A DNA stretch of 64,000 nt from an uncultured delta proteobacterium (GCA_963723235.1 CAVRPV010000006.1:304914-368913); one strand, 5' to 3'; counted from the first letter of the stretch, positions 44,218-59,267 are shown. A program made the numbers and translations. Notes: a model not told the origin generated them from the sequence alone.

Positions 44218-44273
44218 TGCTACCCCAACAAGGGCGGTAACCGGGCTTGAACAGCTGAAACAGGAAGTTTTAC

Positions 44274-44350: not shown

Positions 44351-44358
44351 GTATTATC

Positions 44359-44396
44359 AAGCACTTAGCTCACAAGGCTAAGTGCTTTTTATTTTT
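44359..44396 (+). terminator. Intrinsic terminator after the tRNA pair
   Basis: AAGCACTTAGC-loop-GCTAAGTGCTT followed by a T run. Confidence 0.8.
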
Positions 44397-44947
44397 GGTT
44401 GCGTATAGGTTGTGTCTTGCTTAACAACAGAGGTGGTTAGGATGGCTGTATTTTTAATATCCGGTGTGTGGATTGGGATGGGAAAAACTTTCCAACATCT
44501 GCTAAAACGTGGAATATATCAAAAATCTGCTAAAATAAAGAAATGTAATTTCAATAACTTATTATCATTGAGGGGCTTGGAAGCTCAGGAGTTCAATTCT
44601 GGCAGAAAGTGGAGTTCAGTCAGAAGAAACGCCGGCTGAAGATTGTAGCCATCGTGCCAGCCGGTCTTGCGCCGGGTTCCTAACCGATCAGCGTGAACGC
44701 CTGCGTCGGCGAAGTGGTCATTACCGGCAAAAATCGATAGCAGTACATTGCAACTCGAATATGTATCAAGCAGGCAGGGTCAGCACATGGCCCTGCCTGT
44801 TTGTTTTGGACGTCATTTCAATGAACATCCGGTCTGGGATGTATTGGCTGAGACACACCCCAAGCCCCCCTGTTTTCGAGCCTTTCAGTAGAGCCCCTGA
44901 GGTAACAGGCTAAATTTTCTTGTCAGGGTAAATGTAACAATAGGAAA

Positions 44948-45540
44948 GTATGATAGGAAAATGCATTGTCTGAGCTGTTTGACTAGATCATTTTAATTTT
45001 ACAAAGCTTACTACAGTAATTTTTAAAGACGTTCATCTTCAGCTCAATAGTTTTGCCAGCCTTTTGGCAGACGATAAGAATGTGTCGCCAGCTAAATTGC
45101 TGAGCGATTATGAGCGCACCGCCGGAGAAGCCTAGATAGCCTCCATGATATACGATGGATCATTAAATAAGCATACTGCGAATAAACTCTGCATCTCAGA
45201 AAATACTGTCAGGCATCATGTAACGAGTGTGTAAAATAAAGGTTGAAAGCCGTATCAGCTTAATCAATATGAAACGGGAAACAAGATTATTATCTAAACC
45301 ATTGCCTCTGCCGCACATAGGCCCTTTCGTGCCTGAAATATAGACCTTGGTGCTATTGTATTATCTGTTGATAGCGTATATCTTTACCTATACCAACAAC
45401 TGGTATTCGTTATATGTCTTCAAAAGGTTGTGGTCCTTAGAGCACTATGACTAACAGATGGGTGTGTATGATAGGAAAATGCATTGTCTAAGCTGCTTGA
45501 CTAGATCATTTTAATTTTACAAAGCTTACTATAATAATTT
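44948..45540 (+). repeat. About 75-bp direct repeats (44948-45022, 45466-45540)
   Basis: GTATGATAGGAAAATGCATTGTCT.AGCTG.TTGACTAGATCATTTTAATTTTACAAAGCTTACTA occurs twice. Confidence 0.85.
45095..45280 (+). pseudogene. Degenerate LuxR-type HTH remnant
   Basis: Reads ERTAGEA*IASMIYDGSLNKHTANKLCISENTVRHHVTSV*NK, matching the LuxR G..NK.IA..L.ISE.TV..H pattern with in-frame stops. Confidence 0.6.
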
Positions 45541-45774
45541 ATATTTATTTACATACTAAATAGTAATAATTAACACTTTAGATTTAAAATATTAAACTTC
45601 TTATTCATTAAAATCGAATAAAAATTAATTGTATTTTTTAGAGGCAATCTATATTTTTTTATTGATATCTATTGATAACATTGGCTTGATTTTTTAAAAA
45701 AAGAAAAAACCGCTTGAAAAAAAAAATTTATAGTCTAAATAGGTAGATAGACCAATAATACTTTTTGTTAAATA

Positions 45775-45866
45775 ATTAGTTTGAAAAAAGCCAAACCAGT
45801 CGTGAGGCTGGGACGGAAAGCCACGGGTTTTATACATTGATATAAAATAGCCGGGTTACCAAACAA
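45775..45866 (+). ncRNA. GEMM-I (c-di-GMP-I class) riboswitch aptamer
   Basis: AAG CC AAA CCAGTC GTGA GGCTGG GAC GG AAAGCC ACGGG...TAGCCGGGTTACC; G at the Vc2 G20-equivalent position. Confidence 0.9.
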
Positions 45867-45889
45867 TTGGTAGCCCGGCTATTTTTTTT
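45846..45889 (+). terminator. Riboswitch expression-platform terminator
   Basis: ATAGCCGGGTTACCAA/TTGGTAGCCCGGCTAT plus T8; overlaps the aptamer 3' strand (ON-switch geometry). Confidence 0.85.
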
Positions 45890-46419
45890 GTTTCGCGGTT
45901 TCTGCTATCGTCCTATTGGATCAGGAGGATAGAGTTTTTTATCTTTATTATTTATACTGGCTTGACTGTCGGTAGCATATAGTGAACCTCAAGCATGCTA
46001 TTGTATGCCTTGTGGTTGTATAGTGCATCACTACGTAGCAACAGTCAGTCTAAATTAACTCAAGTTCGTGACTAAGTCCAAAACCGGCAACCTTTTAATG
46101 GTTGTTCGGATCGGGTTTTTTTCTTTTTTTCTATATCCTGATGGCTATTTGGTTTTAACTCTTTACGTTTCATTTATCGGCTTATAGAGACAAAGCTTAA
46201 GAAAAAAAAGCAGCTATGTAAAAAAATATTTCCGGCGGTAAATTATGATCACAAGTTTCTTGGCTATTGCAGGGGGAAAAATATTTTTTAAACGTTCCTT
46301 TTCGCCTGTTTTCATCACCATGAAAAGGATGGGCCTGGAATATGAGGAGCAGGGAACGCATCTTAATTTTTGTTTTATGAGCAGCATTTGAATTCTGACA
46401 ATCATGAAAAGAAGAAATT

Positions 46420-46548
46420 ATGGAAGACCAGAAGAAGCGCTATGAAACACCGGCAATCATCACCCATACGGAGGAGGAAATCGCCAGCAGAATCGGGCCG
46501 GCGCACAAGGTACCCTCGGGGGGCCCTCCCGGCATTGAGTACCCGTAA
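46420..46548 (+). CDS. Putative RiPP precursor A1: MEDQKKRYETPAIITHTEEEIASRIGPAHKVPSGGPPGIEYP
   Basis: Manual translation; YxxPxI leader motif; two paralogues in the locus. Confidence 0.75.
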   Translation: MEDQKKRYETPAIITHTEEEIASRIGPAHKVPSGGPPGIEYP

Positions 46549-46604
46549 TAGCAACTGCATCTTGCAGGCTTAATAAATTTTTTACCCATTAGGAAGGGCT
46601 TTTA

Positions 46605-46799
46605 ATGGAAAAAAAACAATGGCTGCAACAATGGCTGGAGAAACGTTCCTACACGAAAGAGGATGTCCTTCACATAGCCGGAAAAAGGCTGCCGGAGACA
46701 CCAGATAGGCCATATACGGACCATGATATAGTCAAGATACTCGGCCCGACGTCCTGCGCTGAGAAACCCAGTGTGCCTTCCGGCACGCAATATCGGTAA
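46605..46799 (+). CDS. Putative RiPP precursor B1 (64 aa)
   Basis: AGGAAGG RBS; paralogue at 55915..56103; two YTxxD(I/V)xxIxG motifs. Confidence 0.7.
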   Translation: MEKKQWLQQWLEKRSYTKEDVLHIAGKRLPETPDRPYTDHDIVKILGPTSCAEKPSVPSGTQYR

Positions 46800-46937
46800 C
46801 CGCAACATTAACCGGGAGATTTTAACAAGCCCACATAGCAATGACATTTTCATACGGAGAACTCTTTATGAAAAAGATTTTTTTCTGCCACTTGTAGCAG
46901 CATTTTTAAAATGCCAAAGGAGAGGAGGTATTGCAGA

Positions 46938-47033
46938 ATGAAAGAACAGTATGAAAAGCCTAAAGTTGTAGAAATTGATTTGGAGGAATCTTTCAGTTTT
47001 GGACGGCCGCCTGTTAGCCCCATTATGCCATAA
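46938..47033 (+). CDS. Putative RiPP precursor C1: MKEQYEKPKVVEIDLEESFSFGRPPVSPIMP
   Basis: AGGAGG RBS; YEKPKV leader motif; tandem copy 177 bp downstream. Confidence 0.8.
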   Translation: MKEQYEKPKVVEIDLEESFSFGRPPVSPIMP

Positions 47034-47114
47034 AGAGCAATTTGGATGTTGGTTGCGATTAACTTTTTAAGAGTTTTAAACAGTGTTCCATTAGACAAAA
47101 GGAGGTATTGCAGA

Positions 47115-47204
47115 ATGAAAGAACAGTATGAAAAGCCTAAAGTTGTAGAAATTGACCTGGAGGAATCTTTCAGTTTTGGGCGGCCGCCTGTTAGCCCTCT
47201 TTGA
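47115..47204 (+). CDS. Putative RiPP precursor C2: MKEQYEKPKVVEIDLEESFSFGRPPVSPL
   Basis: AGGAGG RBS; differs from C1 by synonymous changes and the C-terminus only. Confidence 0.8.
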   Translation: MKEQYEKPKVVEIDLEESFSFGRPPVSPL

Positions 47205-47261
47205 TTGATTATCGTTCATGGTGATATCTCCAAAGAATTGTGTCAATACTTGCGGGTGTGA

Positions 47262-48155
47262 ATGCAGACACACGTAACGACCGGTTTTGGCGGTTATGTT
47301 GTGCGGTTTGTTTGTGAAGATGCAGGGGTAGTGGATCTTCTTGATTTGCACTTCCGTGAACACGTGACCGACGCAGAGCCGGATGTCACGCTTGCTATGA
47401 GGGTTGTTGCGCCGGGTGTGATCGCGAAGGTTGATGATCTTTCTGAATCGTACTATGCTTTTTTTGATCAGGGGACCGTCAATTTTGGCCCCAACCTGCT
47501 TGAGGGGCGCTGGGATTTCGACAGTAAGATATTTACCCTGAAGGTCAGCCGCGAACTCATGGTGCAGGAGGAGTTGTGGCTTTTTGACCGGTTTTTATGC
47601 AGGCTGTATTATACCCTGGTGATGAGGGACAGGCGCCGAAGCTCCAGGCCGTTGATTGTACATTGTGCAGGGGTGGTCCGCGATGGCAGGGGCTATATTT
47701 TCTTCGGTCCCCCGGGAAGCGGAAAAAGCACGGCAGCCGGCCTGTCCAGACACTATCATATCATGCATGATGATATGAACATTGTGACCTTGGACGGTGA
47801 CCGGGTGCAGGTTCAAGGTGTTCCCTTCAACCCGAAGCTGATCGAACGCACCAATGTCGGCGTGCCCCTGTCGATGATCTGTTCGCTGCATCAGTCAGCT
47901 GCGGTACGCCTTGAACGGGGAACACAGGATGAGTTCCTGCAGAAAGTCGTACCGGAAAATTTTCTGCCGCTGCCGCTTTTCACCAACGATCGCAAGCATG
48001 CTTTTCAGTACTTGTTGGCATGCCTCAGGGACTTGAGTCGGCAGGTACCCTATTACCGCTTGTATTTTAAAAAAGACGAAAGCTTTTGGGACCATATCGC
48101 AACAGTGGAGGTTTTGCATGGACAACATTCAGCAGATGTACATCAAAAGAATTGA
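47262..48155 (+). CDS. HPr-kinase-related P-loop protein 1
   Basis: VHCAGVVRDGRGYIFFGPPGSGKST...MHDD...GVPF. Confidence 0.8.
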   Translation: MQTHVTTGFGGYVVRFVCEDAGVVDLLDLHFREHVTDAEPDVTLAMRVVAPGVIAKVDDLSESYYAFFDQGTVNFGPNLLEGRWDFDSKIFTLKVSRELMVQEELWLFDRFLCRLYYTLVMRDRRRSSRPLIVHCAGVVRDGRGYIFFGPPGSGKSTAAGLSRHYHIMHDDMNIVTLDGDRVQVQGVPFNPKLIERTNVGVPLSMICSLHQSAAVRLERGTQDEFLQKVVPENFLPLPLFTNDRKHAFQYLLACLRDLSRQVPYYRLYFKKDESFWDHIATVEVLHGQHSADVHQKN

Positions 48156-48415
48156 AGACAATGCCGTCTGGACGAAGCTGGACAAGGGCACCATGATTAT
48201 TATGACAGCGGATATAGGAAAAGGTGCTGGACCTCAACAAGACAGCGGCCTGTCTCTGGGAAAAGAGCGATGGCTCGCAGACGGTCGGAGCGCTTGTGGA
48301 ACACCTGTGCCAGACGTATGACGTGGACGCGGAGGCCGCACTCGCTGACGTCATTGATTTTATTGAGGCTATGAAAAAGAAGAACCTGCTCGCGGTTTCA
48401 GAGGCTGCGATATAA
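48118..48415 (+). CDS. PqqD-family RiPP recognition element (frameshift near 48222)
   Basis: GGAGG RBS; MDNIQQ...MIIMTADIG joins LDLNKTAACLWEKSDGSQTVGALVEHLCQTYDVDAEAALADVIDFIEAMKKKNLL, a classic PqqD pattern. Confidence 0.85.
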
Positions 48416-48441
48416 CGCCGCGCCAAACGGAGTGTCCCTGC

Positions 48442-49587
48442 ATGAAATCACGTGTCAGTGCATGCATGATCGTTAAAGACGAGGAGGCGAACCTTGCCCG
48501 GTGCCTCCGCAGCATCCGAGGCGCAGTTGATGAAATAATCGTGGTCGACACGGGCTCCCGCGATGCAACCGTCGAAATCGCCCGATCCTTCGATGCACAT
48601 GTATACTTCTGCCCCTGGGAGGATAATTTCTCCATTCCCCGCAATGTGTCCATCGAGCATGCGCAGGGGGAGTGGATTTTCTTGATCGATGCCGATGAAG
48701 AGCTGGAAAGCGCTGCACGGGACACAATCCAAAAACTTGTATGCAACAATACCCTGCTTGGGTACTCCGTGCTCATAGAAATGCATCCGGACTTTACCCC
48801 GATGAGGAGTCTGCGTTTGTTCAGGAATATGCCTTCCTTGCGTTTTAGAGGGGTCTTTCATGAAGAGTTGACAGTACCCCGGGACAGCGCCGACAGGGTC
48901 ATGCCTGCCGACATACGGATTATTCACACACCTTTTAATCAGGAAATAACAGACAGGAAATATGAGCGCAATGTCACGCTTTTGCGCAAGCATCTGAACG
49001 AATACCCTGATGATGCGTATCAAATGCTCGATCTTGCGCGGCTATACCTGGGGAAGGATGCCGCGGCTGAGGCTGAAATACTTTTGCAGCGTGCCCGCGG
49101 GATTATTCTCGACCATACTCCATCGTACAGCAGGCAGAAGCTGGAGGTGTGCCGTTCTTTTTATTATTCGCTGCACTACGGATGTTTGTTGCAAAAAAAC
49201 AGCGATATCCGGGAGCGCCTGACAGTGTGCCGGGAAGCCATTGAGACCCTGCCGGAATGCCCCTTGTTTTATTATCATGCGGCCAACCTGTATTATGCAT
49301 TGCAACAGTATGAGGCGGCCATCGGGCATTTTGAGAAATGCATTGCATTTGGAAAGCAGCCGGCACGTGATGTGACCATTTTGTATCCCCGCGAGTGTCT
49401 CAGCAGTCTCCCTCTTGCCGGTTTGGGATATTCTTTATTCAGGGAAAAAAAATATATGCAGGCCACCCGCTATTTTAAGGCATCCCTTGCATACAAACAG
49501 GATCATGCCATTGATGTAATGTTAGCTTCGGCATCACTGCTTGCAGAAAAAGCCGAATGCACTGCCGGCAGCCTTCCGCGCCCATGA
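48442..49587 (+). CDS. GT2 glycosyltransferase with C-terminal TPRs (SunS/flagellin-GT-like architecture)
   Basis: SACMIVKDEE, DTGSRDAT, WEDNFS..RN, WIFLIDADE, FRGVFHE, then TPR-like helices. Confidence 0.88.
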   Translation: MKSRVSACMIVKDEEANLARCLRSIRGAVDEIIVVDTGSRDATVEIARSFDAHVYFCPWEDNFSIPRNVSIEHAQGEWIFLIDADEELESAARDTIQKLVCNNTLLGYSVLIEMHPDFTPMRSLRLFRNMPSLRFRGVFHEELTVPRDSADRVMPADIRIIHTPFNQEITDRKYERNVTLLRKHLNEYPDDAYQMLDLARLYLGKDAAAEAEILLQRARGIILDHTPSYSRQKLEVCRSFYYSLHYGCLLQKNSDIRERLTVCREAIETLPECPLFYYHAANLYYALQQYEAAIGHFEKCIAFGKQPARDVTILYPRECLSSLPLAGLGYSLFREKKYMQATRYFKASLAYKQDHAIDVMLASASLLAEKAECTAGSLPRP

Positions 49588-50999
49588 ATCATCATCTCCC
49601 GGTTTATTTCGGTCGGTTCGCGCTCGCTATAGTATCTCCCTCAAAATCGGTCATTGATCATCTGCGGCTATTCTTTGCCGGGTATGAATGTGGTCGGAAA
49701 GCCACTGCCACCCTGCATATTCTCACATCCAGAGATTTGCCTCCTCCCCGGGAACAGCTGTTATCCAAGCAGTGGACCGCTTTGGCAGTGCATGACAATG
49801 GGTTTGAAATAGGTCCCAATGTGATACAGGGAAGAATTCTACCGGATCAGTGTACCTTCATTATTACGGTGCATGAAGATTTGTTTTTGCCGGGACTTGC
49901 AAATGTGATCAATGCTTTTTTTTACCGTCTCTACTATACCTTGTGCGCTCTCAACAAAACTCACAGCTGCATTATCCATGGTTGCGGCGTGATGCGCGAT
50001 CAGATCGGCTATCTGTTTATCGGGCCGCATCACTCGGGGAAAACAACCATCGGACTGTTATCAGGCGCCCCCATTCTGCATGATGATCAGATGATCCTCA
50101 CGCTTGAAGGCGACACGCTTACCATGGACAGCCCGCCGCTACCGGCGCGGGATAATCTCAGGCAGCGGCCCGAAGCGCCCTGTGTACTCGAAAGGATTTT
50201 CCTTGCGGTAAAGGATGAACAGTTCTCTGTCAGGCAGCTCGCTCCGGAGCATGCGGTGGCGTGCCTTTATAATGATGTTGTGATGCCCCATACGCTTCTC
50301 TCCGTTGCTGCGAACGCGGCCCGCATGCGCAAGGCGCAGTTGTGTTTTGCCCTTCAGCGGGCAGTACCTGTGTTTGAGCTGCATTTTGACAGGCAGGGGC
50401 AATTCTGGGAACAGCTCAGCACGATGCAATGGCCTATATCGATAAATGAGCATACAATTGATACAGCCGGTGATAGGCCGAAGAGATTTGTCAGTCGTGT
50501 ATGGCTTGAGCAGTATCAGCAGTCGGGCGCCGGAAGCTTAACCATTCTCAGCGGGAGCATGGCGCCGCTGATCAATACGGGGGATCAGATTTGTGTCCGC
50601 AAAACGCCGCTTGACCGTATCCATATCGGCGACATCATTACTTTTTGGAAAGGGGGGGAATTGATTACTCATCGCGTCATACGTACATGCATCAGAGAGG
50701 GAGGAGTATGCTTTGTGGAGCGGGGTGACAAGCATCCTCATCATTCTTTCATTGATGCAGCATCGGTCATCGGCAAGGTAGCCAGGATCAATAAGGGCAG
50801 CCATAGTGTTGAGATGCACAAACTGCACTGGCAGATATTTAACCGAACTGTCGGAGTTCTGTTTTTAAGCATCTTTTTTTTACGCCTCCTGGCCCGGCGT
50901 ATTCCATTTCTTCCCCAGCAGGTTAAAGGTGGCGGCAATAAAATTTTAACTGTTCTGACGAGAATAAAAAACAAAGCTCTTAATGCTCAGTTCAGGTGA
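49584..50999 (+). CDS. HPr-kinase-related P-loop protein 2 fused to an S24/S26-family peptidase
   Basis: IHGCGVMRDQIGYLFIGPHHSGKTT...LHDD; C-terminal SGSMAPLINTGD...GDIITF...ITHRVI...RGD; ATGA overlap with the GT gene. Confidence 0.8.
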   Translation: MNHHLPVYFGRFALAIVSPSKSVIDHLRLFFAGYECGRKATATLHILTSRDLPPPREQLLSKQWTALAVHDNGFEIGPNVIQGRILPDQCTFIITVHEDLFLPGLANVINAFFYRLYYTLCALNKTHSCIIHGCGVMRDQIGYLFIGPHHSGKTTIGLLSGAPILHDDQMILTLEGDTLTMDSPPLPARDNLRQRPEAPCVLERIFLAVKDEQFSVRQLAPEHAVACLYNDVVMPHTLLSVAANAARMRKAQLCFALQRAVPVFELHFDRQGQFWEQLSTMQWPISINEHTIDTAGDRPKRFVSRVWLEQYQQSGAGSLTILSGSMAPLINTGDQICVRKTPLDRIHIGDIITFWKGGELITHRVIRTCIREGGVCFVERGDKHPHHSFIDAASVIGKVARINKGSHSVEMHKLHWQIFNRTVGVLFLSIFFLRLLARRIPFLPQQVKGGGNKILTVLTRIKNKALNAQFR

Positions 51000-51069
51000 A
51001 ACAAACGAGACTTGCAAAGCTGGCTGCATCCTGTAAAGTAATAATGAATGATGTCATCTTGAGTCTAAC

Positions 51070-51175
51070 ATGGTCCCCATAATAGAACTACAGAACATCT
51101 CTAAATATTACCCGAAAGCGGCGGGGGTATCGCGGCTTATAATCCCCAAAATTGAGGGGGGCAAAGCCCTCACCT
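51070..51175 (+). pseudogene. Truncated N-terminus of an ABC ATP-binding protein
   Basis: MVPIIELQNISKYYP...KAL then similarity is lost before Walker A. Confidence 0.45.
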
Positions 51176-51254
51176 TATGCAGGTTGTGGCCTTCACAGTT
51201 GAATAATGTCTCGCCAAAGGCCGCGCTCGCAAGGCCGATGAGCAGCTATTCAAA

Positions 51255-51395
51255 GAATGTCAGATAGGCCTCCTTGAATCGCATCTTCCGTACCTCCTGC
51301 AGCATTTCTGTCCGTTTCATGAGTCACCTCCAGCAGTGACTCTAAACCGGACAGTTCATGTGCTACAAGACCGGACAGATTATAAACTCCCAACA
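51255..51395 (-). mobile_element. IS1202/ISNCY-like IS end plus transposase 5' fragment
   Basis: Minus strand starts TGTTGG, has two CTGTCCGG repeats, then GGAGG and MKRTEMLQEVRKMRFKEAY. Confidence 0.65.
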
Positions 51396-51551
51396 CAAAG
51401 GAAAAAGCAATTGACCGCCGCACGCAAAAATCGTATAGATTGTTGGCAGTCACAACCGTTAACCAACGGCGGCTTGTAGTGTTTTAAAATCGTTTTGGCG
51501 ACATTAACTAAAAATCGAGGCGCTCTTCAAAGCACAAAAAAGTAGCCCACA

Positions 51552-52706
51552 ATGACAGCCAAGCAAACTTCAATCTACGCACTCATCGCTGGAAATCATT
51601 CTGATGGTCCTTTGAATGATGACGTACTGAAGGTCTTATATGATCACAACCTTTTACCTTATTTCTTTTCTAGTAACAGGGCATTTCCCGTTGAACTTCA
51701 GAAAACCAGACGGACTATTCTGATAAAACAGCAGCTTGTATATCAGTTGGCTTGTAGGGACTTGGTGCAAGTGGTTGAGGCTTTGGAAGCAGTCGGTGTT
51801 GAATACCGGGTGTTGAAAGGAATCGCAATTGCTCAGACCTATCCTTATCCATATGCAAGGAGCATGGGAGATCATGACATTTGTGTCCATGTTGAGAATT
51901 TTGATCAGGCAATAGTGGCTATTGCGTCATTAGGATATCAAAGGAGCGAAAGGGAAGATACAGAAAGTGACGTGGGCTTTTTCAAAGAGGGCCACCTCAA
52001 AATCGAACTTCACAGACAATTGTTCGACCATGGTCGTGTGCGTAATGGCGAGGATTTGCTGCATGAGCTTTGGGCAGATGCTTTCGAGATCATGGTAGGC
52101 AGCAAGGTTATTCTTGTTCCTCAAATAGAGACTCATTTTAAATATTTAATCATTCACATGTTGAGGCATCTGATATATACAGGAATTGGCATCCGGAATT
52201 TGATAGATATTGTTCACTTTAGTACAGTTCACGCTGTTGACTGCAAATCCTATCAAACCTATTTTGATGACTATGGCTATGGTGCCTTTTATAGAGCGAT
52301 TATCTCGATCTGTGTCTATGAATTAGGCATGAAAATAGATGATCATTCCTGGCTATATAATAAAGAGGAATTGGTGATTAGAGATTTGTCATCGTATATT
52401 CTCCAAAGTGGCGCTTTTGGTGGTAGCGATGAAGCGCTTATCAGAGAAATTTATACCCGGCTTTTGAAACCCAATCAAAAAAACCATGTGTTTATAATAA
52501 TATTGTCGTCTCTATTCCCAAGTTCAAAAGCGATCGGTGCTTGCTACAGTTATGTGACTAAATGGCCTGTGCTGCTTCCTGTAGCATGGGTACACCGATG
52601 GCTTAGGTTCACTTTAAAGACCAAACTCTATGTGATCACAAAGACTAAGAATAGCTTTGTTATAAAAGATCGCTTGATGAAGGGTTTGGGTTTGCATGAT
52701 TATTGA
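51552..52706 (+). CDS. Nucleotidyltransferase family protein (NTP_transf_5-like)
   Basis: VLKGIAIAQTYPYPYARSMGDHDICV, IELH, IHMLRH..GIGIRNLIDI, LLPVAWVHRW. Confidence 0.85.
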   Translation: MTAKQTSIYALIAGNHSDGPLNDDVLKVLYDHNLLPYFFSSNRAFPVELQKTRRTILIKQQLVYQLACRDLVQVVEALEAVGVEYRVLKGIAIAQTYPYPYARSMGDHDICVHVENFDQAIVAIASLGYQRSEREDTESDVGFFKEGHLKIELHRQLFDHGRVRNGEDLLHELWADAFEIMVGSKVILVPQIETHFKYLIIHMLRHLIYTGIGIRNLIDIVHFSTVHAVDCKSYQTYFDDYGYGAFYRAIISICVYELGMKIDDHSWLYNKEELVIRDLSSYILQSGAFGGSDEALIREIYTRLLKPNQKNHVFIIILSSLFPSSKAIGACYSYVTKWPVLLPVAWVHRWLRFTLKTKLYVITKTKNSFVIKDRLMKGLGLHDY

Positions 52707-52959
52707 AGCTTACACCGCCCCTGTTTTATAGTTTGCCCATCTCAAAACAAGTTCCGATCAAGAAGGCCGTTGCCGTTTCCCGTGGGGCAGAGGGAAACTC
52801 AGCATCACATGCAGGCATGTAGCTGTCCTTCAGGTACTGGTTTGCTGCCCTCATTGTTGTGATCTCCAGTTTTGCCAATTCGTTTGTACGCCGACGGCAC
52901 AGCTATAACTGCATGAGCGAAGGACTGAATCCGGTTCTGTCTGCTCACCTCCTGTACGT

Positions 52960-54135
52960 CTACAAATTATCTATCATGTCCCCCATCATGGATAAATGTC
53001 CGGGCTCTAATGTGTAACAATTTACATTCTCGACAATTTTTCCGACAGTCAATAACATCGAGGAAGCTTTCCCGGCAGATTCATTAAAGAAACTGGTGCC
53101 CGGAGAACGGTTGATCATATGGGTCAGGATTCGAAAGCAGGCTTCGGACTTTGGCAATTGCCGTATCTGCGGGTTCTGTTCAAAACATGGTTTTTTATCC
53201 TCAACAATTGTGACCCCGAGTATTTCACACTCATACCTGCTCCAGATATCCTGGTAAAATGCCATTAGGGATTTTTTATCAGGTGCTCTGAATCTGTATG
53301 CGGGATATCCGTGAGTCAGCACTTCATATGCCATCTCAACATCAGGATGCCGCGACAGCCTGTCAAGCAATCCCTGGTGGTGGTTCAAAAGCATGAGATC
53401 AAAATAACATCCACGACTGGCTTGCTCTGCCTGCTGCGCAACGCTTTCTACAAGCAGGATGATATTTTTGGGTGCGCATCGTTGCCCTTGACTTGCAGGG
53501 AACAAATCAGCGGGATCTGCAAAATACTTGCCTTCAAAATCAAGATAAAAAGCCTTCTGCGTATCAACCAACCCGTAAAAAGGGCTGTTCTCCTTTATGC
53601 CAACCCTTCTGGGAAAAGGGTCAAGGCAATAGTCATGTTTTCTTATAAGACAAAACTCATCGGATAAAAACTGATAGCCGCGTGACAACAGCTCAAGCAC
53701 CAAAGTTGTTTTGCCGAATCCAGATGGCGCTATGATTACCGTACCATTATTTTCCTTCGAGACAACACCCGCATGAATAAGGATGTAGTCACTGATCATC
53801 GGCATAATCCGCGTGAAAATTATCTGCTCGGCAAGGCCGCTGATTTTTCTATCGGAGGGTAAGTGCGCAGCGAACCCGTTACTCTGGATGAGCAACGGAC
53901 CATGATGAAATCGATTTTTTTTCAAAATATAGAAGGTAAGACACGTTTCCGGAAGTTTTTGACACATAAAATTTTTATACACTTGGCTAAACGCAGCAAA
54001 GCTGTCCTGACAGTCAGCGTACAGTTCGAGACCGACATTAAAAAAATTAAAAACACGCCGATACGGAGCCTGCTTTTGTATATCCTGTCGATCTGATGGA
54101 GTTAAATTAATCTGCATATCCTGTAATGCTATCAC
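52960..54135 (-). CDS. HPr-kinase-related P-loop protein 3
   Basis: LIHAGVVS...IIAPSGFGKTTLVLELLSRGYQFLSDEF...PFPR. Confidence 0.82.
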   Translation of the reverse strand: MIALQDMQINLTPSDRQDIQKQAPYRRVFNFFNVGLELYADCQDSFAAFSQVYKNFMCQKLPETCLTFYILKKNRFHHGPLLIQSNGFAAHLPSDRKISGLAEQIIFTRIMPMISDYILIHAGVVSKENNGTVIIAPSGFGKTTLVLELLSRGYQFLSDEFCLIRKHDYCLDPFPRRVGIKENSPFYGLVDTQKAFYLDFEGKYFADPADLFPASQGQRCAPKNIILLVESVAQQAEQASRGCYFDLMLLNHHQGLLDRLSRHPDVEMAYEVLTHGYPAYRFRAPDKKSLMAFYQDIWSRYECEILGVTIVEDKKPCFEQNPQIRQLPKSEACFRILTHMINRSPGTSFFNESAGKASSMLLTVGKIVENVNCYTLEPGHLSMMGDMIDNL

Positions 54136-54154
54136 ATATTGTTGATAAAATGAC

Positions 54155-54200
54155 TTAAAAAATCCATGGGATTATACTCCGTTTGTATAATCCCATGGAT
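54155..54200 (-). terminator. Intrinsic terminator
   Basis: Perfect 16-bp stem ATCCATGGGATTATAC/GTATAATCCCATGGAT with a T run on the minus strand. Confidence 0.75.
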
Positions 54201-54306
54201 AGGCATGAAACTTATTTTTTTTGCATCAGTCTATAAGCATATATCCTGACACACTATACTACACTACACGAATCTTCCCCTCTACCAGAGGCACGTCTAC
54301 CACCGA

Positions 54307-54412
54307 TCAGGGCAGTTCAATGCCGCGGGGATTCTCTTACAGTAAAACCCGATGCAGGGCACCGCATCATAAATGCTGCTGCGATAATTGGCAGAATAAT
54401 AATCTTACGCAT
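54307..54412 (-). pseudogene. Internally deleted duplicate of the secreted protein gene
   Basis: MRKIIILPIIAAAFMMRCPASGFT matches the N-terminus of 54674..55846; joined out of frame to ENPRGIELP*, matching its C-terminus KNPIGIELD*. Confidence 0.7.
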
Positions 54413-54480
54413 AGTATGTCCTCGTTATAAGATTGGTATGGCTTTCGATAAACCCGTGAAAATATCAGGTTACTAGAGCT

Positions 54481-54609
54481 TTACGGGTACTCAATGCCAG
54501 CAGGGCCTCCCGAGGTTACCGTATGTGCCGGCCCGATTATGCTGGCGATTTCCTCCTCCGTATAGGTTATGATGGCTGGCGTTTCATAGCGCTTCTTCTG
54601 GTCTTCCAT
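54481..54609 (-). CDS. Putative RiPP precursor A3: MEDQKKRYETPAIITYTEEEIASIIGPAHTVTSGGPAGIEYP
   Basis: Manual translation; AAGGAGGAG RBS. Confidence 0.8.
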   Translation of the reverse strand: MEDQKKRYETPAIITYTEEEIASIIGPAHTVTSGGPAGIEYP

Positions 54610-54673
54610 AACTCCTCCTTTGAAAAAGATATGTTTATACAGTGTTGTAAAAACCTCACCATAACTATTGCCA

Positions 54674-55846
54674 TCAATCTAATTCAATGCCGATGGGATT
54701 CTTGATCTTCGTCTGTTCTTCTGCTGTTACTGTCTTCTGGCTTCGAGCTTTGTTTTTACGGGGTGGTTTGTTATCCTTATCTATGCGATACTTGAAATAC
54801 ATCGCCCAATTACCGTGGAATTTTTTGAAGCGCTTACCGGCACCCCAGGCAGTCTGCTCATCGCAGATTTTCTGCTCGCAGGGAAGCGGCACAGGTATAA
54901 TCACGGGCTGGGCGGGCAGGCCCTGGACGTCAAACGGCTGCAATACAACGCCAACAAACTCCGTGCAGCCCGGCTCATAAAAAAAACCGTATTCTTCGGC
55001 GCCAGCGAGGATTTCAGCCACCTGGCAGCGTGAATACGGGCCCAGACTCAGGTTGCTGTTCTCATCATCAATCAGGGTCCAGATAGCCCTTTGAACCGAA
55101 CCATACGTATAGACCGGAAGATCAGGGTTGCATTGTGTCGGCTTGCCGACAAACTGCTGATTCAAAATCCAGTTGATCTTGTCGAGATTCCCCGGGAAAT
55201 CAACCAGACCATCCGGAAGCGTTGCATAGCTAGAGAAGACATTTGCATTGTACTGCACTCCTTCCGTTATACCAATCGACGTTGAAAGGCACCATCCGTC
55301 ATGGGTGCCCGTAAGCAGATCATCAGCATCGGCAACATCAATTGCGGGGAGATACGCCGGGCCATCGAGATAGGGATCGTTCGTGGTCATCGTTGCTTCT
55401 GCGGGAAGCGTGCCAGCAAAAAGAGCAAGATCAGGATCCTCATACCCGCAGATAGACCCCACAACAGCGTGTGCCGCAATATAGACACACTTAGTGCGCG
55501 AAGACCAACGCAATGGAATTGTATACATGTGCTCGGTTGCGCAGTCGAGCTCATCCTGGAATTCAAACTTTTCGGGTATGGGGTGGAAGAATAGCTGCGG
55601 TATTAACCGCGGGCTGCATTCGACAGCAAGGTGCGTCTCGCGCAAACACCAACCAGAATCAGTGATCACATACTTCACGTACATGTTCGTGTCATCATTC
55701 CAGACACGGACTTCACCGACTGTGATGTGCTGGCCTGCGATCAATGGAGTGACAAACGGGGAGGCTTCTGTTGCAGTAAAGCCCGATGCAGGGCACAGCA
55801 TCATAAAAACTGCTGCTACAATTGGCAGAAAAATAATCTTACGCAT
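54674..55846 (-). CDS. Secreted Cys-rich protein with a thioester-domain-like insert
   Basis: Signal peptide; LIAGQ..VGEVRVWND..WCLRETHL domain; insert with GWCLS, KINWILN, VQRAIW, AQPVII. Confidence 0.75.
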   Translation of the reverse strand: MRKIIFLPIVAAVFMMLCPASGFTATEASPFVTPLIAGQHITVGEVRVWNDDTNMYVKYVITDSGWCLRETHLAVECSPRLIPQLFFHPIPEKFEFQDELDCATEHMYTIPLRWSSRTKCVYIAAHAVVGSICGYEDPDLALFAGTLPAEATMTTNDPYLDGPAYLPAIDVADADDLLTGTHDGWCLSTSIGITEGVQYNANVFSSYATLPDGLVDFPGNLDKINWILNQQFVGKPTQCNPDLPVYTYGSVQRAIWTLIDDENSNLSLGPYSRCQVAEILAGAEEYGFFYEPGCTEFVGVVLQPFDVQGLPAQPVIIPVPLPCEQKICDEQTAWGAGKRFKKFHGNWAMYFKYRIDKDNKPPRKNKARSQKTVTAEEQTKIKNPIGIELD

Positions 55847-55914
55847 ATTATGTTTTCCTTATAAAATTGTCAGTGACATATTGACTTGTTAGAATCTCCC
55901 GGTTAATGCTGAGA

Positions 55915-56103
55915 TTACGGAGATTGAGTGCCTGAAGGCCCACTGGATGTCGCAGCGCAAGGCGTCGGGCCGAGTATCTTGCCTATATCCTCTTTCATGC
56001 TATCAGGTTCAAAGTATGACCTGTTACCGGCTATTTTGAGGATATCCTCTTTCGTGTAGGACCTTTTTTCCAGCCATTGTTGCACCCATTGTTTGTTGTC
56101 CAT
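55915..56103 (-). CDS. Putative RiPP precursor B2 (62 aa)
   Basis: MDNKQWVQQWLEKRSYTKEDILKIAG...KEDIGKILGPTPCAATSSGPSGTQSP; paralogue of B1. Confidence 0.7.
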   Translation of the reverse strand: MDNKQWVQQWLEKRSYTKEDILKIAGNRSYFEPDSMKEDIGKILGPTPCAATSSGPSGTQSP

Positions 56104-56159
56104 AAAAAGCCCTTTCTAAATGGTGAAATATTCATTACATATGCAAAATACAGTTGCCA

Positions 56160-56294
56160 TTACGGATGCTTAATGCGGCGAGGGTGAGGGCCGCCCGAGG
56201 TACAGGTAAGTGCCGGCCCGATTATGCTGGCGATATCCTCCTCCGTATAGGTGATGATTGCTGGCGTTTCATAGCGCTTCTTCTGGTCTTCCAT
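56160..56294 (-). CDS. Putative RiPP precursor A2: MEDQKKRYETPAIITYTEEDIASIIGPALTCTSGGPHPRRIKHP
   Basis: Manual translation; AAGGAGGAG RBS. Confidence 0.8.
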   Translation of the reverse strand: MEDQKKRYETPAIITYTEEDIASIIGPALTCTSGGPHPRRIKHP

Positions 56295-56830
56295 AACTCC
56301 TCCTTTACATGATTGTTAGAATTAAAATGCTGGACATAAAACAAAAATAAAGATGCGTTCCCTGTTCCACTTATCTCAGGCCCCTCCTTTACATGGCAAT
56401 GGAAACAGTCGAAAATTGCCGTTTAAAAAATTTTTTCCTCTGCAATAGCCAAGAAACTCGTAATCATAATTTACCGCCGGAAATATTTTTTTTCGTATCT
56501 GCATTTTTTGCTTAACCTTTGTTTCTATAATCCGATAAATAAAACGTACAGGGTGAAAATTAAACAGCCATCAGTCTATATAAAAAAAGAAAAAGAACCT
56601 CATTCGGACAACCATTACAAGGTTGCCGGGTTTTAGATTTAATAACGGATTTGAGTTAGCTTAGACTGACTGTTGTTTCAGTGATGCACAATACAACCCC
56701 GAAGCATATAATCGCATGCTTCGGGTTCACTAAATGCCGCCACAGTCAATACAGTACAAATAATAAGAGAACATAAAAAGCCAGACGCTATCGCACTGAT
56801 GCCATAGACCGATAGCAGAAACCGTGAAAC

Positions 56831-56940
56831 AAAAAAAACAGCCGTACTGCCAAGTTCAACTTTGGCAGCCCGGCTGTTTTTTTTAAAAACCCTTGGCTTT
56901 CCGCGCTATCCCAAAGGATAGGTTGGCTTTTTCAGTTTGA
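56831..56940 (-). ncRNA. Variant GEMM-I riboswitch with overlapping terminator
   Basis: Minus strand AAG CC AAC CTATCC TTTG GGATAG CGC GG AAAGCC AAGGG...CAGCCGGGCTGCC, then TTGGCAGTACGGCTG-T8. Confidence 0.75.
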
Positions 56941-57458
56941 ACAAAAAGTATGTTTTAACCTTTGTCTACTAGTTTAATTTTAGCATCTATTCTTCTGAAT
57001 ACAATTATTATTTTATGTTTGCATACGAATTGATTAAAATTTGATGGGGACTTTGACGTTTATTAACAATATTTTCTTTATTTTACAATCAAAAACGATA
57101 CGATTATAATGGTTTTGTAAATACAGCCTATATTTTAATAATAACTATCATTATAAATAGATTTAGTATTTTTTTATACCAGGATAGCCTCTCAAGCACA
57201 CCTCCAGCACAGGATTTACATGGTGGTCTATTACTGCGGTTATAAAGGTATCAGGTTTGGCGCTCGGCCAGTAAATTTTAAAGAATAATGGCTGCGGCAA
57301 GCCCGTCAATTTTGGCGGGGTCTACTTTGAAGTTGTAAAGCGCTAATTCGCGCATACGCTCGCAGGCTTCTGCGCTTGAGAACGCTTCGTCCTGCTGAAA
57401 GAGCGGCAAAGAGCAAGGGCTTCTTCCAATTGTGTGCTGAAGGTCTCGATCCGGCACT

Positions 57459-59267
57459 TCACGCTGACTGGCTAATTACGCGAGACATTGCGCGAAACGT
57501 CTCCGATGAATCCATCAGTTCGGCATACGTGCCCTTCGCAATGATGTGCCCTGCTTCCATCAAGTAAATCATGTCGCAGTCTTTAACCGTGGTGATCCTG
57601 TGAGCGATCATGATGATCGTCTTGCGTTTCGCCAGGGCCCGTATGCTGTCCATGACAGCCTCTTCGGTTATGCCGTCAAGCGCGCTGGTGGCCTCATCAA
57701 GCACAAGCACGTCCGGATCATGATAGAGCGCGCGCGCGATGCCGACCCTTTGGCGCTGCCCGCCGCTGAGGCGCACGCCACGTTCGCCAATCAAGGTATT
57801 GTAACCTGAAGGCATATCTTCTTCAATAAATTCGGCAATGTTTGCGACCCGGGCAGCGTGCATAATACGATCCATGTCGATATGCTCATCGGGTATACCG
57901 AAAGCGATATTGCGGGCAACCGTATCATCGCTGAGATAAATGTGCTGGGGAACATATCCCAGGTTGCGCTGCCAGGAGGGGCGGTTGTTTTCATCAACGG
58001 TTACACCGTCCACAACGATGCTTCCCGCCCGGGGTGCGAGCAGACCGATAATGATGTCAATCAGGGTCGTTTTTCCCGAACCGGTGGAGCCAACGAAGCC
58101 GATCGTTGTATTGGCCTGGATTTCAAGGCTGAGATCGCTGATTATTGATTCATCGCGACCCGGGTAACAAAAAAAAACATCCTGCAGGCGCAAAGACTTT
58201 TTTAATAAAAGAGGTTTGACATTAGCGGCCTCAAAAGTATTTTCAAAGCCGGCCGTCTTGACAAAATCAGCGTGCATAACATCAAGGGTTGCGGCATTGT
58301 AGCGCAGGGTGGCGATATCGGAGAAAATTGTTTGCAGGGCCGGCATGATCCGCCTAGCGGCAAATACGAACACGGCGAGCACAGGCAACAACTGCGCAAG
58401 ACCCTCTTTATGCGCCAGGAAGTACAGCACAATACAGAGAATTCCCCCGAACGCAACAACCTCCAGAACGTATGCGGGCATAAGGGCCAAAATGCTGCTT
58501 TTTGAAGCGCAGCGGGTATAGCTGTCGCAGCTTTTTACAAAACGGCTCAGGAAGTAGTGCTCCCGGCCAAGGACTTTCAAGTCCTTGATGCCGCTCATGG
58601 CCTCATGTGAAAGCGTGAAACGGTTGAGGTTGGCCTTGAGGCGTTTTTTGCCCCAGGTGGCAAGCCGGGTCCGAATAAACAGATAGAAACCCCCGTATAC
58701 GCAGCCCAGAATCAACACGGTGCCCACGGACAGCCATACGTTGACCGCAAGCAGGAGGACCAGCATAAACAGTGCGGAAATTGATTTTTCAACAACCGAG
58801 ATGCAAGGCCCTAGAATGCCGCGTATGACCGTTGAGGCCTCGTTGAGAATATTGTAGCCGAGCTCGGCGGTATTGCGGTTGAGAAAAAAAATGTAGGGCT
58901 GTGCGAGATAGCGCTCGAGAAGACGCCGTGAGAGAGACTGTTCGCTGCTGAATGTGAATTTGATCTGCGCCCAGGCAAACAATGCCCGGAAGAGGTTATT
59001 AGCAATCAATAGTCCAAGCATACCTGTTCCGAGGAACATAAGGAACCGATTCGCGCTTTCAAAGCCAAGACTCGTGTAGGCCAGTTTTAACCAACGATTG
59101 GTGTCGATAATTTCAGGGTTGGCCACAACTGCGATAAACGGCATGATCGACACAACGCCGACGACATCAAATACAGCTGTCACGACCGAACCCGCGCAGA
59201 GCAGATATACCTGCAACCGCTCTCGGGGAGTGAGAAGCACGAACAGTTTAGGGAGAATTTTTCTCAT
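57459..59267 (-). CDS. ABC exporter, fused TMD-NBD (MsbA/PglK-like)
   Basis: N-terminal TM helices, GSTGSGKTT, GYVPQ, LSGGQRQR, LVLDEATSALD, IAHR. Confidence 0.92.
   Translation of the reverse strand: MRKILPKLFVLLTPRERLQVYLLCAGSVVTAVFDVVGVVSIMPFIAVVANPEIIDTNRWLKLAYTSLGFESANRFLMFLGTGMLGLLIANNLFRALFAWAQIKFTFSSEQSLSRRLLERYLAQPYIFFLNRNTAELGYNILNEASTVIRGILGPCISVVEKSISALFMLVLLLAVNVWLSVGTVLILGCVYGGFYLFIRTRLATWGKKRLKANLNRFTLSHEAMSGIKDLKVLGREHYFLSRFVKSCDSYTRCASKSSILALMPAYVLEVVAFGGILCIVLYFLAHKEGLAQLLPVLAVFVFAARRIMPALQTIFSDIATLRYNAATLDVMHADFVKTAGFENTFEAANVKPLLLKKSLRLQDVFFCYPGRDESIISDLSLEIQANTTIGFVGSTGSGKTTLIDIIIGLLAPRAGSIVVDGVTVDENNRPSWQRNLGYVPQHIYLSDDTVARNIAFGIPDEHIDMDRIMHAARVANIAEFIEEDMPSGYNTLIGERGVRLSGGQRQRVGIARALYHDPDVLVLDEATSALDGITEEAVMDSIRALAKRKTIIMIAHRITTVKDCDMIYLMEAGHIIAKGTYAELMDSSETFRAMSRVISQSA

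Follow-up and report, generated by a model that had tools for sequence, protein, structure and literature searches.

The 64,000-nucleotide stretch of DNA analysed here (the window) carries three paralogous short genes, A1 (46420-46548, + strand), A2 (56160-56294, − strand) and A3 (54481-54609, − strand), whose peptides belong to a conserved and unannotated family of Thermodesulfobacteriota-type bacteria. We put at about 0.65 the probability that they are RiPP precursors processed by an RRE, a kinase and a SpI peptidase in the manner of the LPP class, and by analogy with that class, enzymes encoded nearby probably phosphorylate the family-A peptides, trim them and export them. If the system is LPP-like, a class first described in 2026 would extend to a different bacterial phylum.

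The three open reading frames translate exactly to the precursors of 42, 44 and 42 amino acids (A1, A2 and A3) proposed in an earlier note on this DNA. The contrast that it had drawn between their ribosome-binding sites was also found, with AAAGGAGGAGTT-ATG upstream of A2 and A3 and AAAGAAGAAATT-ATG upstream of A1. Weaker expression of A1 is predicted from this weak Shine-Dalgarno sequence. A1 is also the sole subfamily member altered at four conserved positions (Y16H, I24R, T30K and T32P); it looks like a degenerate copy and is probably still degenerating. The likeness of A1 and A2 is in itself no proof of a gene because both lie inside an inverted segmental duplication of about 1 kb (45867-46884 versus 55830-56853, 70-87% identity). 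Since the non-coding parts of this duplication around A1 and A2 are likewise 70-87% identical, the frames might have arisen by chance in duplicated non-coding DNA. Family-wide data supply the proof to the contrary. In a set of 28 family genes drawn from 13 genomes, codon positions 1, 2 and 3 account for 1859, 861 and 5128 differences. The annotated frame has a pN/pS of 0.246; of the five other frames, four have values above 1, and the antisense frame with the same wobble position has 0.32. Purifying selection acts on family A in the annotated frame. The DNA similarity of A3 to A1 and A2 begins at the ribosome-binding site and stops at the stop codon (repeats I5 and D2), a 6-nt in-frame indel sets A2 apart from A1 and A3, and a fourth, diverged copy on another contig (C10) has PqqD and HprK-like genes on either side. 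Together with the codon-position bias and pN/pS, these observations establish A1, A2 and A3 as real genes, beyond chance. Chance frames, to which we give next to no credence, are refuted by the codon-position and pN/pS data and by 358 homologues.

Family A was found in 13 of the 21 genomes of the order, and the 358 matches (E ≤ 1e-3) come from a large protein collection; none of the best 120 of them has a Pfam domain. Members follow the pattern YExPxhITYxEEEI..hGPAxT, in which YExPxh reads YETPAI in A1-A3, and then end in a short variable core with a median length of 9.5 residues over 112 distinct peptides (4-16 in most members). The conserved leader and variable tail described in the earlier note are thus borne out, with the conserved part extending two residues beyond IGPA, to a Thr at position −1: Gly −5, Pro −4 and Ala −3 occur in 112/112 distinct peptides and Thr −1 in 107/112. 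Core position +1 is Cys in 90 of the 112, as it is in A2, and +2 is Thr or Ser in 92. That note had also held SGGP and the terminal Pro to be invariant. Among the 10 distinct sequences of the A subfamily, Ser33, Gly34 and Pro36 are indeed invariant, but the terminal Pro is not, since the tails end in P, D or H. Cleavage after the conserved Thr would place the SGGP Ser, already singled out as the candidate modification site, at core +3, the position phosphorylated in the published LPP system. A Ser somewhere in +1 to +4 is present in 96 of the 112 peptides; the 16 that have none there, such as those with CTTGFQP cores, count against phosphorylation of Ser3.

Elsewhere, a family peptide is flanked by genes for a PqqD/RRE protein and for an HprK-like kinase, after which come a C25 peptidase and a SpI-like peptidase (homologues of 182-221 aa). 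PqqD, peptide, HprK-like protein, Peptidase_C25 and an S24/SpI-like protein occur together in 6 of 16 wider loci, the PqqD of L038 having been detected separately, and tblastn detected the same gene set in additional loci, among them four genomes from elsewhere in the phylum. The proposed association with PqqD and kinase genes therefore holds across genomes, with K2 (52960-54135, − strand) as the kinase partner and not K1. All 10 core loci with a PqqD-rSAM-SPASM gene, which follows the peptide as in ranthipeptide and sactipeptide systems, have Cys at +1; two loci without an rSAM gene have Met or Ile at +1, and two with a B12-rSAM have Tyr. Because the +1 residue tracks the rSAM type in 14/14 loci, the core is, as far as such covariation tells, the place of modification. 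Unlike ranthipeptide and sactipeptide precursors, A1 and A3 contain no Cys; no PqqD-rSAM-SPASM gene was found in the window, and the best match in its own genome has 30% identity over 174 aa and is no close orthologue.

The PqqD/RRE gene of the window (48118-48415, + strand; PF05402, 57.8 bits on 48224-48412) is in two frames in the assembly, with a shift near 48215-48226 and the N-terminal part running from 48118 in the other frame. In a contig of run X2 one base is missing at 48215 and the gene then lies in one frame, and an intact orthologue exists in locus L048. This PqqD is of the type found in the second peptide module of the window (family B), with E 2.5e-10 against the A-type RRE model as measured via the L048 orthologue. 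A second, intact PqqD adjoins the fourth family-A member on contig C10. It is on a different contig from A1-A3 that this genome has its A-type RRE, SpI-like protein and C25 peptidase. No PqqD was found in the 9.7 kb upstream of the A-X-K2 genes of L061, a contig that stops just past K2. The B-module type and split frame of the window's PqqD, the separate contig and the L061 result all weigh against the LPP-like reading. Among solved structures the A-type RRE profile matches LppB best (9x8z_B, E 1.8e-5); two lasso proteins, TbiB1 (1.3e-4) and TfuB1 (1.3e-3), rank lower. When the alignments of the C10-type RRE and of the peptide were co-folded, the score was 0.57, against 0.00 for the best of three controls. 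This is graded as weak support: 58 of 80 solved complexes attain the mark, as do 2 of 110 mismatched pairs, but at 0.60 or under it is attained by only 7 of the solved complexes and by both mismatches. At least 98% of contacts agreed between runs and partner pLDDT was at least 59; the pass may nevertheless reflect memorised structures because RRE-leader complexes have already been solved.

K2 is an HprK-like P-loop kinase with a likely ATG start at 54114. It shares 33-37% identity over its full length with the core-locus kinases (E 1e-66 to 1e-86), including the invariant block HAGVV..SG.GKTT..RGY.F.SDE, and its predicted fold resembles PEPCK and HprK/P. By these sequence comparisons it is of the kinase type that accompanies A-like peptides. 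P-loops occur in K2, in K1 (47262-48155, + strand), the ScmC/HprK-like protein of the B-family module, and in the N-terminal domain of a kinase-SpI fusion, K3-SpI. K2 and K1 partially match the HprK-related kinase A (HprK_rel_A) and ScmC models (TIGR04352, TIGR04249) around the P-loop, with scores far under the cut-offs (62 versus 200 bits for K2, 32 versus 125 for K1). HprK-related kinase A and ScmC families adjoin PqqD proteins, and we know of no precursor defined for these systems.

The tightest-linked family-A partner after K2 is X (54674-55846, − strand), a 390-aa protein predicted to be secreted from its N-terminal signal-like sequence. X adjoins A in L005 and L057-L061, and the order A-(C)-X-(A)-K2 occurs on five independent metagenome contigs and in L005, K2 being next in 3/3 contigs long enough to show it. 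A3 lies between X, 64 nt upstream of it, and K2, and it is followed by X' (54317-54412, − strand), in which the 5' end of X is present again in truncated form (D1 repeat, 54304-54435 versus 55738-55869, 80%); X' recurs in L058, where the order X-A-X'-K2 is as in the window. X has 153 homologues, with PF08341 in 3 of the best 120, and its structure model has a pLDDT of 33. Two peptides of a further family, C, accompany the A genes: the 64-aa C1 (46605-46799, + strand; inverted repeats I3 and I4) after A1, and the 62-aa C2 (55915-56103, − strand) between A2 and X, with homologues beside A in L057 and L059.

Other roles are conceivable for the peptides. They might be translated small proteins that act unmodified, as a chaperone, an inhibitor, a mimic of the C-terminal tail of X or a signal, in which case K2 would have a different target, for example X or family C. 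The constant neighbours are indeed X and K2 and not an RRE; the tails of the A peptides are similar to the C-terminus of X (GVEFD for both peptide and protein in genome G001, GIEYP versus GIELD in the window); and family C lacks YxxP yet has the common module [ST]Y.E[DE]I..hhGP. We nonetheless regard unmodified action as improbable, at roughly one chance in ten: the leader is conserved well beyond the X-bearing genomes and lies directly between RRE and kinase elsewhere, YxxP is a known RRE ligand, and a +1 residue that tracks the rSAM type is typical of a modified core.

Slightly less improbable, though still unlikely, is that A-like peptides, instead of being free natural products, serve a cell-surface protein system as partner or tag modules. 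They would work with, or be fused to, secreted proteins that have a conserved C-terminal domain, and the RRE, kinase, C25 and SpI would form a sorting or attachment machine with the clan-CD C25 peptidase as transpeptidase, an arrangement to which we give the same low odds. PorU of type IX secretion, a transpeptidase, is the model for such a C25. A Peptidase_C25 of about 1090 aa is seen in every core locus of sufficient length, A is invariably beside the secreted X in the window and its relatives, and the last 27 nt of A and X are identical at 23 of 27 positions in G001. Of the nine peptide genes of G013, seven are located 40-121 nt past a match to a C-terminal domain of about 85 aa, and an eighth 338 nt past one. 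This domain, which has no NCBIfam match and no significant Pfam match (best E 0.003), closes five different large secreted proteins, and three G196 paralogues hold the domain, a TM helix, a Lys/Arg linker and an A-like peptide in a single open frame. However, the domain is far commoner than the peptide (31 versus 9 in G013; 45 in G020), an excess suggesting that peptide genes could hitch-hike with a recombining cassette. X lacks the domain, the window's own genome has just two good matches to it, far from the A genes, and a weak search for longer proteins with the peptide module found only 16, all of 78-138 aa. The tail of the fused form would also be cytoplasmic, which is awkward for surface attachment.

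Our preferred reading, that of modified RiPP precursors, finds its closest known system by sequence comparison in LPP. In the published account of that class (Popov et al., Nat Commun 2026, PMC13381572), an RRE binds a YxxP leader, SpI cleaves after Thr −1, core Ser3 is polyphosphorylated by a kinase, LppK, that does not accept Thr, the leader motif is YxxPxVLxHQxIxFETxxS / Px9Fx[T/A], and the class is stated to be restricted to Bacillota. Family A likewise has from one to three short precursors in each cluster, conserved at the N-terminus and variable at the C-terminus, together with a YxxPxh-type RRE-binding motif (YxxPxV in LPP), Thr as the last leader residue and Ser at core +3. A discrete PqqD-family RRE, an HprK-like kinase, a SpI domain and an MsbA-like exporter are all present in the window. 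The window also has a PF14907 nucleotidyltransferase, which may or may not correspond to LppN, the NTP transferase of LPP clusters, given no Pfam accession in the main text of that account (PMC13381572). Family A differs from LPP in several respects. The distance from Tyr to Thr is 22 residues against 15 (7 longer) and that from Pro to Thr 19 against 12, and the leader ends in GPAQT instead of FET, with Ala and not Phe at −3 (112/112); the family-A leader fails the published LPP motif because of this spacing and position −3. The median core is far shorter than the 45 aa of LppA, core loci contain Peptidase_C25 and frequently an rSAM enzyme in addition, the SpI domain of the window is fused to a kinase-like domain, each genome has many orphan paralogues, and a c-di-GMP-I-GGC riboswitch lies upstream. 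The one named relative is an uncultured Thermodesulfobacteriota MAG, in contrast to the Bacillota of the LPP account (PMC13381572).

Several of these features recur in paeninodin-type lasso clusters, which are described in the same account as having a YxxP/WxxP leader, a PqqD RRE, an HprK-like kinase acting on a precursor Ser and a nucleotidyltransferase (PMC13381572). The window shares a YxxPxh leader, PqqD, an HprK-like kinase and NTP_transf_5 with them. That A1-A3 encode lasso precursors is nevertheless hardly credible: neither an asparagine-synthetase-like macrolactam cyclase nor a B2 transglutaminase-like cysteine peptidase was found among the 18 cluster ORFs and 144 ORFs of 16 related loci, the cores, of 4-16 aa in most members, cannot form a lasso, and positions 7-9 of A3 include neither Asp nor Glu. 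The paeninodin kinase acts on a C-terminal Ser, unlike the variable C-terminal residue of family A.

By analogy with LPP, the PqqD-type RRE would bind the N-terminal YETPAI as an added beta-strand and hand the peptide to K2, which would phosphorylate, perhaps repeatedly, the invariant Ser of TSGGP. The leader would then be cut after the conserved Thr, the candidate peptidases being K3-SpI and the 194-aa SpI-like protein of the C10 locus. The short core (VTSGGPAGIEYP in A3) might be decorated further by NTP_transf_5 (51552-52706, + strand; PF14907, 8.8e-34) and a glycosyltransferase, and could be exported by the MsbA/PglK-like ABC pump (57459-59267, − strand). This 602-aa protein is matched by PglK, HepA and MsbA models and lacks a C39 peptidase domain; in L058 the N-terminus of the exporter directly follows K2.

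K3-SpI (49557-50999, + strand; 480 aa) joins an HprK-like N-terminal domain, whose 290 aa are paralogous to K1 (E 2e-25), to a C-terminal archaeal-type signal peptidase I (TIGR02228, 58.3 bits, cut-off 51.85, residues 319-412) that aligns with SEC11A at SGSM, HRV and GD. It is encoded near a second precursor family, B1 (46938-47033, + strand) and B2 (47115-47204, + strand), related by the D3 repeat and with orthologues in L048; K1 is 65% identical to its L048 orthologue. Since the relative L048 has the B module and no A peptide, family B may be the only one served by K1, the glycosyltransferase and K3-SpI, and perhaps by NTP_transf_5 too. The glycosyltransferase, a SunS-like GT2-TPR protein (48442-49587, + strand; PF00535, 7.5e-19), accompanies family B and not A in L048, and its resemblance to the glycocin system is a match below cut-off (TIGR04195, 93 bits, cut-off 350).

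A c-di-GMP-I-GGC riboswitch precedes each of the two operons that A1 and A2 head. The first aptamer (45781-45864, + strand) scores 66.5 bits against RF03167 (gathering score 59); the second, upstream of A2 (56860-56936, − strand), scores 46.6 bits, below the gathering score, with E 1.8e-8, and A2 is the first gene behind it. No further RF03167 match was found in the genome. Peptide production is thus probably tied to a cyclic-dinucleotide-type signal, the presumed ligand. Riboswitch 1 is preceded by a promoter-like site (45748-45776) and has a terminator at 45844-45885.

A1 (46420-46548, +), A2 (56160-56294, −) and A3 (54481-54609, −), put forward in an earlier note as three precursor peptide genes of one family (family A), are real genes. 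Their translations match the peptides quoted there exactly, and the reported difference in ribosome-binding sites holds, with AAAGGAGGAGTT-ATG upstream of A2 and A3 versus AAAGAAGAAATT-ATG upstream of A1. Selection on the leader, a check named beforehand, is evident: the 378 pairwise comparisons among 28 genes, over 23 aligned leader codons, give 1859, 861 and 5128 differences at codon positions 1, 2 and 3, and pN/pS is 0.246 in the annotated frame; it exceeds 1 in four of the five other frames and is 0.32 in the wobble-sharing antisense frame. A1 and A2 lie within a ~1-kb inverted segmental duplication (45867-46884 versus 55830-56853, 70-87% identity) that also includes an extended 5′ leader, a riboswitch and another small ORF, of family C. 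The DNA similarity of A3 to A1 and A2 runs from the ribosome-binding site to the stop codon and no further, and A2 carries an in-frame 6-nt indel. A fourth, diverged copy is located on C10, another contig of the same genome.

The family profile was built from 22 members. The leader search proposed in the earlier note retrieved 358 proteins (E ≤ 1e-3) from a large protein collection; the 120 listed among them carry no Pfam domain and, where the source names them at all, are called “hypothetical protein”, bar one evident misnomer. Neither Pfam nor NCBIfam holds a model for family A. Matches occur in 13 of 21 genomes of the order, with at most nine per genome, and in 15 of 401 genomes sampled across the phylum (9/11 from the two families of the same order, 6/390 among the others).

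We counted conserved residues in 112 distinct family peptides, numbered relative to a conserved T(−1). Upstream of an invariant G(−5), P(−4) and A(−3), the leader follows the motif K.YE.P.hITY[ST]E[ED]EI; Q(−2) is found in 97 peptides and T(−1) in 107. Beyond T(−1) follows a segment of 9.5 residues (median). Its first position is Cys in 90 of the 112 peptides and otherwise Ile, Val or Met, its second is Thr or Ser in 92, and a Ser is found somewhere between +1 and +4 in 96. The subfamily of the window comprises 10 distinct sequences, three from the window and seven from metagenomes. An invariant SGGP and terminal Pro had been claimed for these tails; Ser33, Gly34 and Pro36 are indeed invariant, and the terminal Pro is ruled out as a conserved feature because the final residue varies between P, D and H. 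A1 is the sole member of the subfamily changed at Y16H, I24R, T30K and T32P and, given these four unique substitutions and its weak Shine-Dalgarno sequence, looks like a decaying copy.

We fetched 16 wider loci and scanned 144 of the 152 ORFs located within ~5.5 kb of a peptide against Pfam, eight being left out by size limit. The tie to PqqD and kinase genes anticipated by the earlier note was recovered in six core loci, L038 with its PqqD among them, in which the gene order is PqqD, peptide, an optional radical SAM (rSAM) enzyme, an HprK-like protein of ~385 aa, a Peptidase_C25 of ~1090 aa and an S24/signal peptidase I (SpI)-like protein of ~185 aa. Use of tblastn raised the core loci to 14, spread over 13 genomes, of which four lie elsewhere in the phylum. 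The residue at +1 covaries with the rSAM type in 14/14 loci: every one of the 10 loci carrying a PqqD-rSAM-SPASM gene has Cys there, the two loci devoid of rSAM have Met or Ile, and the two with a B12-rSAM have Tyr. This covariation argues that the residues following GPAxT constitute the modified core, and predicts testable chemistry. Literature searches for a published system that unites HprK, PqqD and a C25 peptidase led only to work on lasso peptides and on Linear Polyphosphorylated Peptides (LPP).

In the window, the cluster is organized as two convergent operons flanked by tRNA-Val/tRNA-Asp on one side and an ABC exporter on the other. The plus-strand operon comprises, in order, a riboswitch, A1, the family C peptide C1, a remnant of the secreted protein X, the family B precursors B1 and B2, K1 (ScmC/HprK-like, 47262-48155, +), PqqD and GT2-TPR, with NTP_transf_5 at its end. 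The minus-strand operon comprises a riboswitch, A2, C2, X (390 aa, 54674-55846, −), A3, another X remnant and the HprK-like K2 (52960-54135, −). The two tRNA genes (44142-44350) immediately precede the start of the cluster, and a 78-nt direct repeat of 94% identity (44948-45025 and 45466-45543) lies in the AT-rich stretch between them and the first riboswitch. The cluster region looks like an acquired island; G+C content is 34-51% in the cluster (44000-60000) versus 52-61% in the flanks.

The A-(C)-X-(A)-K2 order recurs in five metagenome contigs and in a locus from the same genus (L005), and K2 comes next in all three contigs long enough to reach it (L058, L060, L061). The 9.7 kb upstream of the module in L061 hold no PqqD; a transposase-like ORF, which adjoins the module, and genes that are housekeeping-like by their N-terminal sequence are found there. 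Given this recurrent order and the makeup of the L061 upstream region, K2 and X are the fixed partners of family A, for which the RRE (PqqD-type RiPP recognition element), the SpI-like peptidase and the C25 peptidase could work from the C10 locus. K2 shares 33-37% identity over its full length with the core-locus kinases (E 1e-66 to 1e-86) and retains the conserved block HAGVV..SG.GKTT..LEL..RGY.F.SDE.C, while K1 and the N-domain of the HprK-like/SpI fusion K3-SpI form a separate kinase-like subfamily. Sequence comparison of K2 with the PDB gives weak P-loop matches only (E 0.2), and its structure model (pLDDT 79.8) matches PEPCK and HprK/P structures. The model of X (mean pLDDT 33) is too low for use, and an Atlas search with X and K2 returned unnamed clusters only. 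The 153 homologues of X come from bacteria and archaea, with the thioester domain PF08341 on 3 of the 120 listed. The C-terminal end of X resembles the adjacent A tail (GVEFD in both in the related genome G001; GIELD versus GIEYP in the window), and the last 27 nt of the two genes are identical at 23 positions in G001 (L005 867-2117) and at 13-14 in the window.

The K1-PqqD-GT-SpI module is primarily that of family B, whose two tandem precursors (MKEQYEKPKVVEIDLEESFSFGRPPVSP.., 46938-47033 and 47115-47204, +) share 97% DNA identity. In L048, from an uncultured Thermodesulfobacteriota MAG, the order is B-B-K1-PqqD-GT-(N-domain)-(SpI) and any A peptide is absent; the B orthologues lie immediately upstream of the module, which makes them its likely substrate. 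The family B leader is nearer in length to the published LPP motif (PMC13381572) than is that of family A. Family C peptides (62-64 aa; 46605-46799, +, downstream of A1, and 55915-56103, −, downstream of A2) lack YxxP; the [ST]Y.[KE][ED]..hhGP-type module known from A occurs twice in them, and a Cys follows GPT. They are found next to A again in L057 and L059, and as remnants in L005, L060 and L061.

The closest described system is LPP, defined by Popov et al. 2026 (PMC13381572), who describe the class as restricted to Bacillota. According to that work, LPP clusters encode 1-3 precursors with the leader motif YxxPxVLxHQxIxFETxxS, the discrete RRE LppB hands the leader to the SpI-like peptidase LppS for cleavage C-terminal to T(−1), and the HprK-like kinase LppK adds several phosphates to core Ser3, the final product and its function being given as unknown (PMC13381572). 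The window encodes counterparts of the LPP RRE, kinase, SpI-like peptidase and MsbA-like exporter, as well as a putative counterpart (NTP_transf_5, PF14907) of the fifth enzyme type, the NTP transferase LppN, and family A shares the T(−1)/S(+3) geometry. The best solved match of the A-type RRE profile is LppB itself (9x8z_B, E 1.8e-5), and the window SpI domain aligns with SEC11A across the SGSM, HRV and GD motifs. The full leader motif is not matched, the spacing is 7 residues longer, position −3 is Ala, and the phylum differs from that of LPP. For these reasons we call the family A system an LPP-like variant and not a member of LPP. A lasso-peptide reading was rejected, neither a cyclase nor a B2 peptidase being among the ORFs scanned in the cluster and in the 16 related loci.

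Under the mechanism we propose, the YETP leader of family A would be bound by the RRE, Ser33 would be phosphorylated by K2, a SpI-type cut would follow Thr30, the core might be further decorated, and export would proceed through the ABC pump. When the C10-type RRE alignment was co-folded with that of the peptide, the outcome was “weak support”, at a score of 0.57 versus 0.00 for the best of three controls (contact agreement of at least 98%, partner pLDDT of at least 59), a pass that may come from memorisation by the folding model because RRE-leader complexes have already been solved. Of 80 solved complexes, 58 reach the mark, as do 2 of 110 mismatched pairs, but at scores of 0.60 or less it is reached by only 7 of the 80 along with both mismatches. 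Against this mechanism, 16 of the 112 cores are devoid of Ser at +1 to +4, the RRE of the window is of B type, and X is left unaccounted for. If a large family in another phylum follows LPP logic, the RRE/HprK-kinase/SpI-peptidase route would prove to be ancient or mobile, and its short, simple cores would lend themselves to characterisation more readily than one of 45 aa. The family also adds new partner enzymes, namely the C25 peptidase, the SPASM and B12 rSAM enzymes, and the kinase-peptidase fusion.

A different product is suggested by the setting of A-like peptides in other genomes, where “orphan” peptide genes closely follow the genes of large secreted proteins (measured gaps of 29-116 nt) ending in a common ~85-aa C-terminal domain (..SE.DNAGFN.YR...YYYKLEDVD..G..T.HGPV..). 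This domain, for which NCBIfam gave no match and Pfam nothing significant (best E 0.003), is seen at the ends of large ORFs in L033, L034, L044, L046 and L047, and in L049-L051 from genome G196; it has 31 matches in G013, 45 in G020, 14 in G018, 24 in G196 and 4 in the genome studied here. By coordinates, seven of the nine G013 peptides lie 40-121 nt behind it, and three G196 paralogues join the domain, a TM helix, a basic linker and an A-like peptide in a single frame. Together with the likeness of the A and X 3′ ends, these arrangements support a reading, which we nevertheless consider unlikely, of the A-like family as the substrate module of an undescribed RRE/HprK-like kinase/C25/SpI-like machine wired to cell-surface proteins; its product would be a phospho-peptide handle that anchors or sorts surface or matrix proteins, and not a diffusible natural product. 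In the lineage of the window A pairs with secreted X, and on this reading a variant cyclic-dinucleotide riboswitch would gate expression. A search for longer proteins bearing the fused module yielded only 16 matches, all of 78-138 aa, which counts weakly against it.

Two matches to RF03167 (c-di-GMP-I-GGC), the only ones in the genome, head the two operons: one at 45781-45864 (+; 66.5 bits, gathering score 59) precedes A1, and one at 56860-56936 (−; 46.6 bits) precedes A2. A promoter-like site closely precedes the first, whose 3′ end is overlapped by a 19-bp terminator; between this terminator and the A1 start codon runs a conserved 5′ leader of ~530 nt. The parent class c-di-GMP-I senses c-di-GMP, with rare variants for c-AMP-GMP, according to PMC7266159; the ligand of the GGC variant is not stated in the literature passages searched. 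We found no riboswitch in 20 family loci at the gathering threshold, and none in L048 or L057-L061 at E ≤ 0.01; upstream sequence is too short on most of these contigs, so that the association with family A is established for this genome only. Such a link would connect this kind of RiPP with cyclic-dinucleotide signalling directly and give the GGC variant a gene context. Contigs from the RNA libraries X19 and X23 cover 46179-46392, 46930-47641 and 47626-47969, and none covers the A1 coding region; they may contain DNA, which makes cover or its absence uninformative on expression.

The window PqqD gene (48118-48415, +) is split over two adjacent frames, and in run X2 the contig of a closely related strain has one base fewer at 48215, which places both parts in one frame. 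The HprK-like kinase of C10 (L032 ~8728-9934, −) likewise spans two frames. Taken together, these cases indicate an assembly prone to single-base indel errors, which are the likely cause of the split frames, and neither gene need be broken. The HprK-like and SpI-like domains form one 480-aa ORF in the window (49557-50999, +) and two adjacent ORFs of 283 and 338 aa in L048 (10016-11885), a difference due to fusion or splitting of the gene or to a further frame problem. In genome G019, group II intron domains adjoin two orphan A-like peptide genes (L018 1916-2172; L024 1-146).
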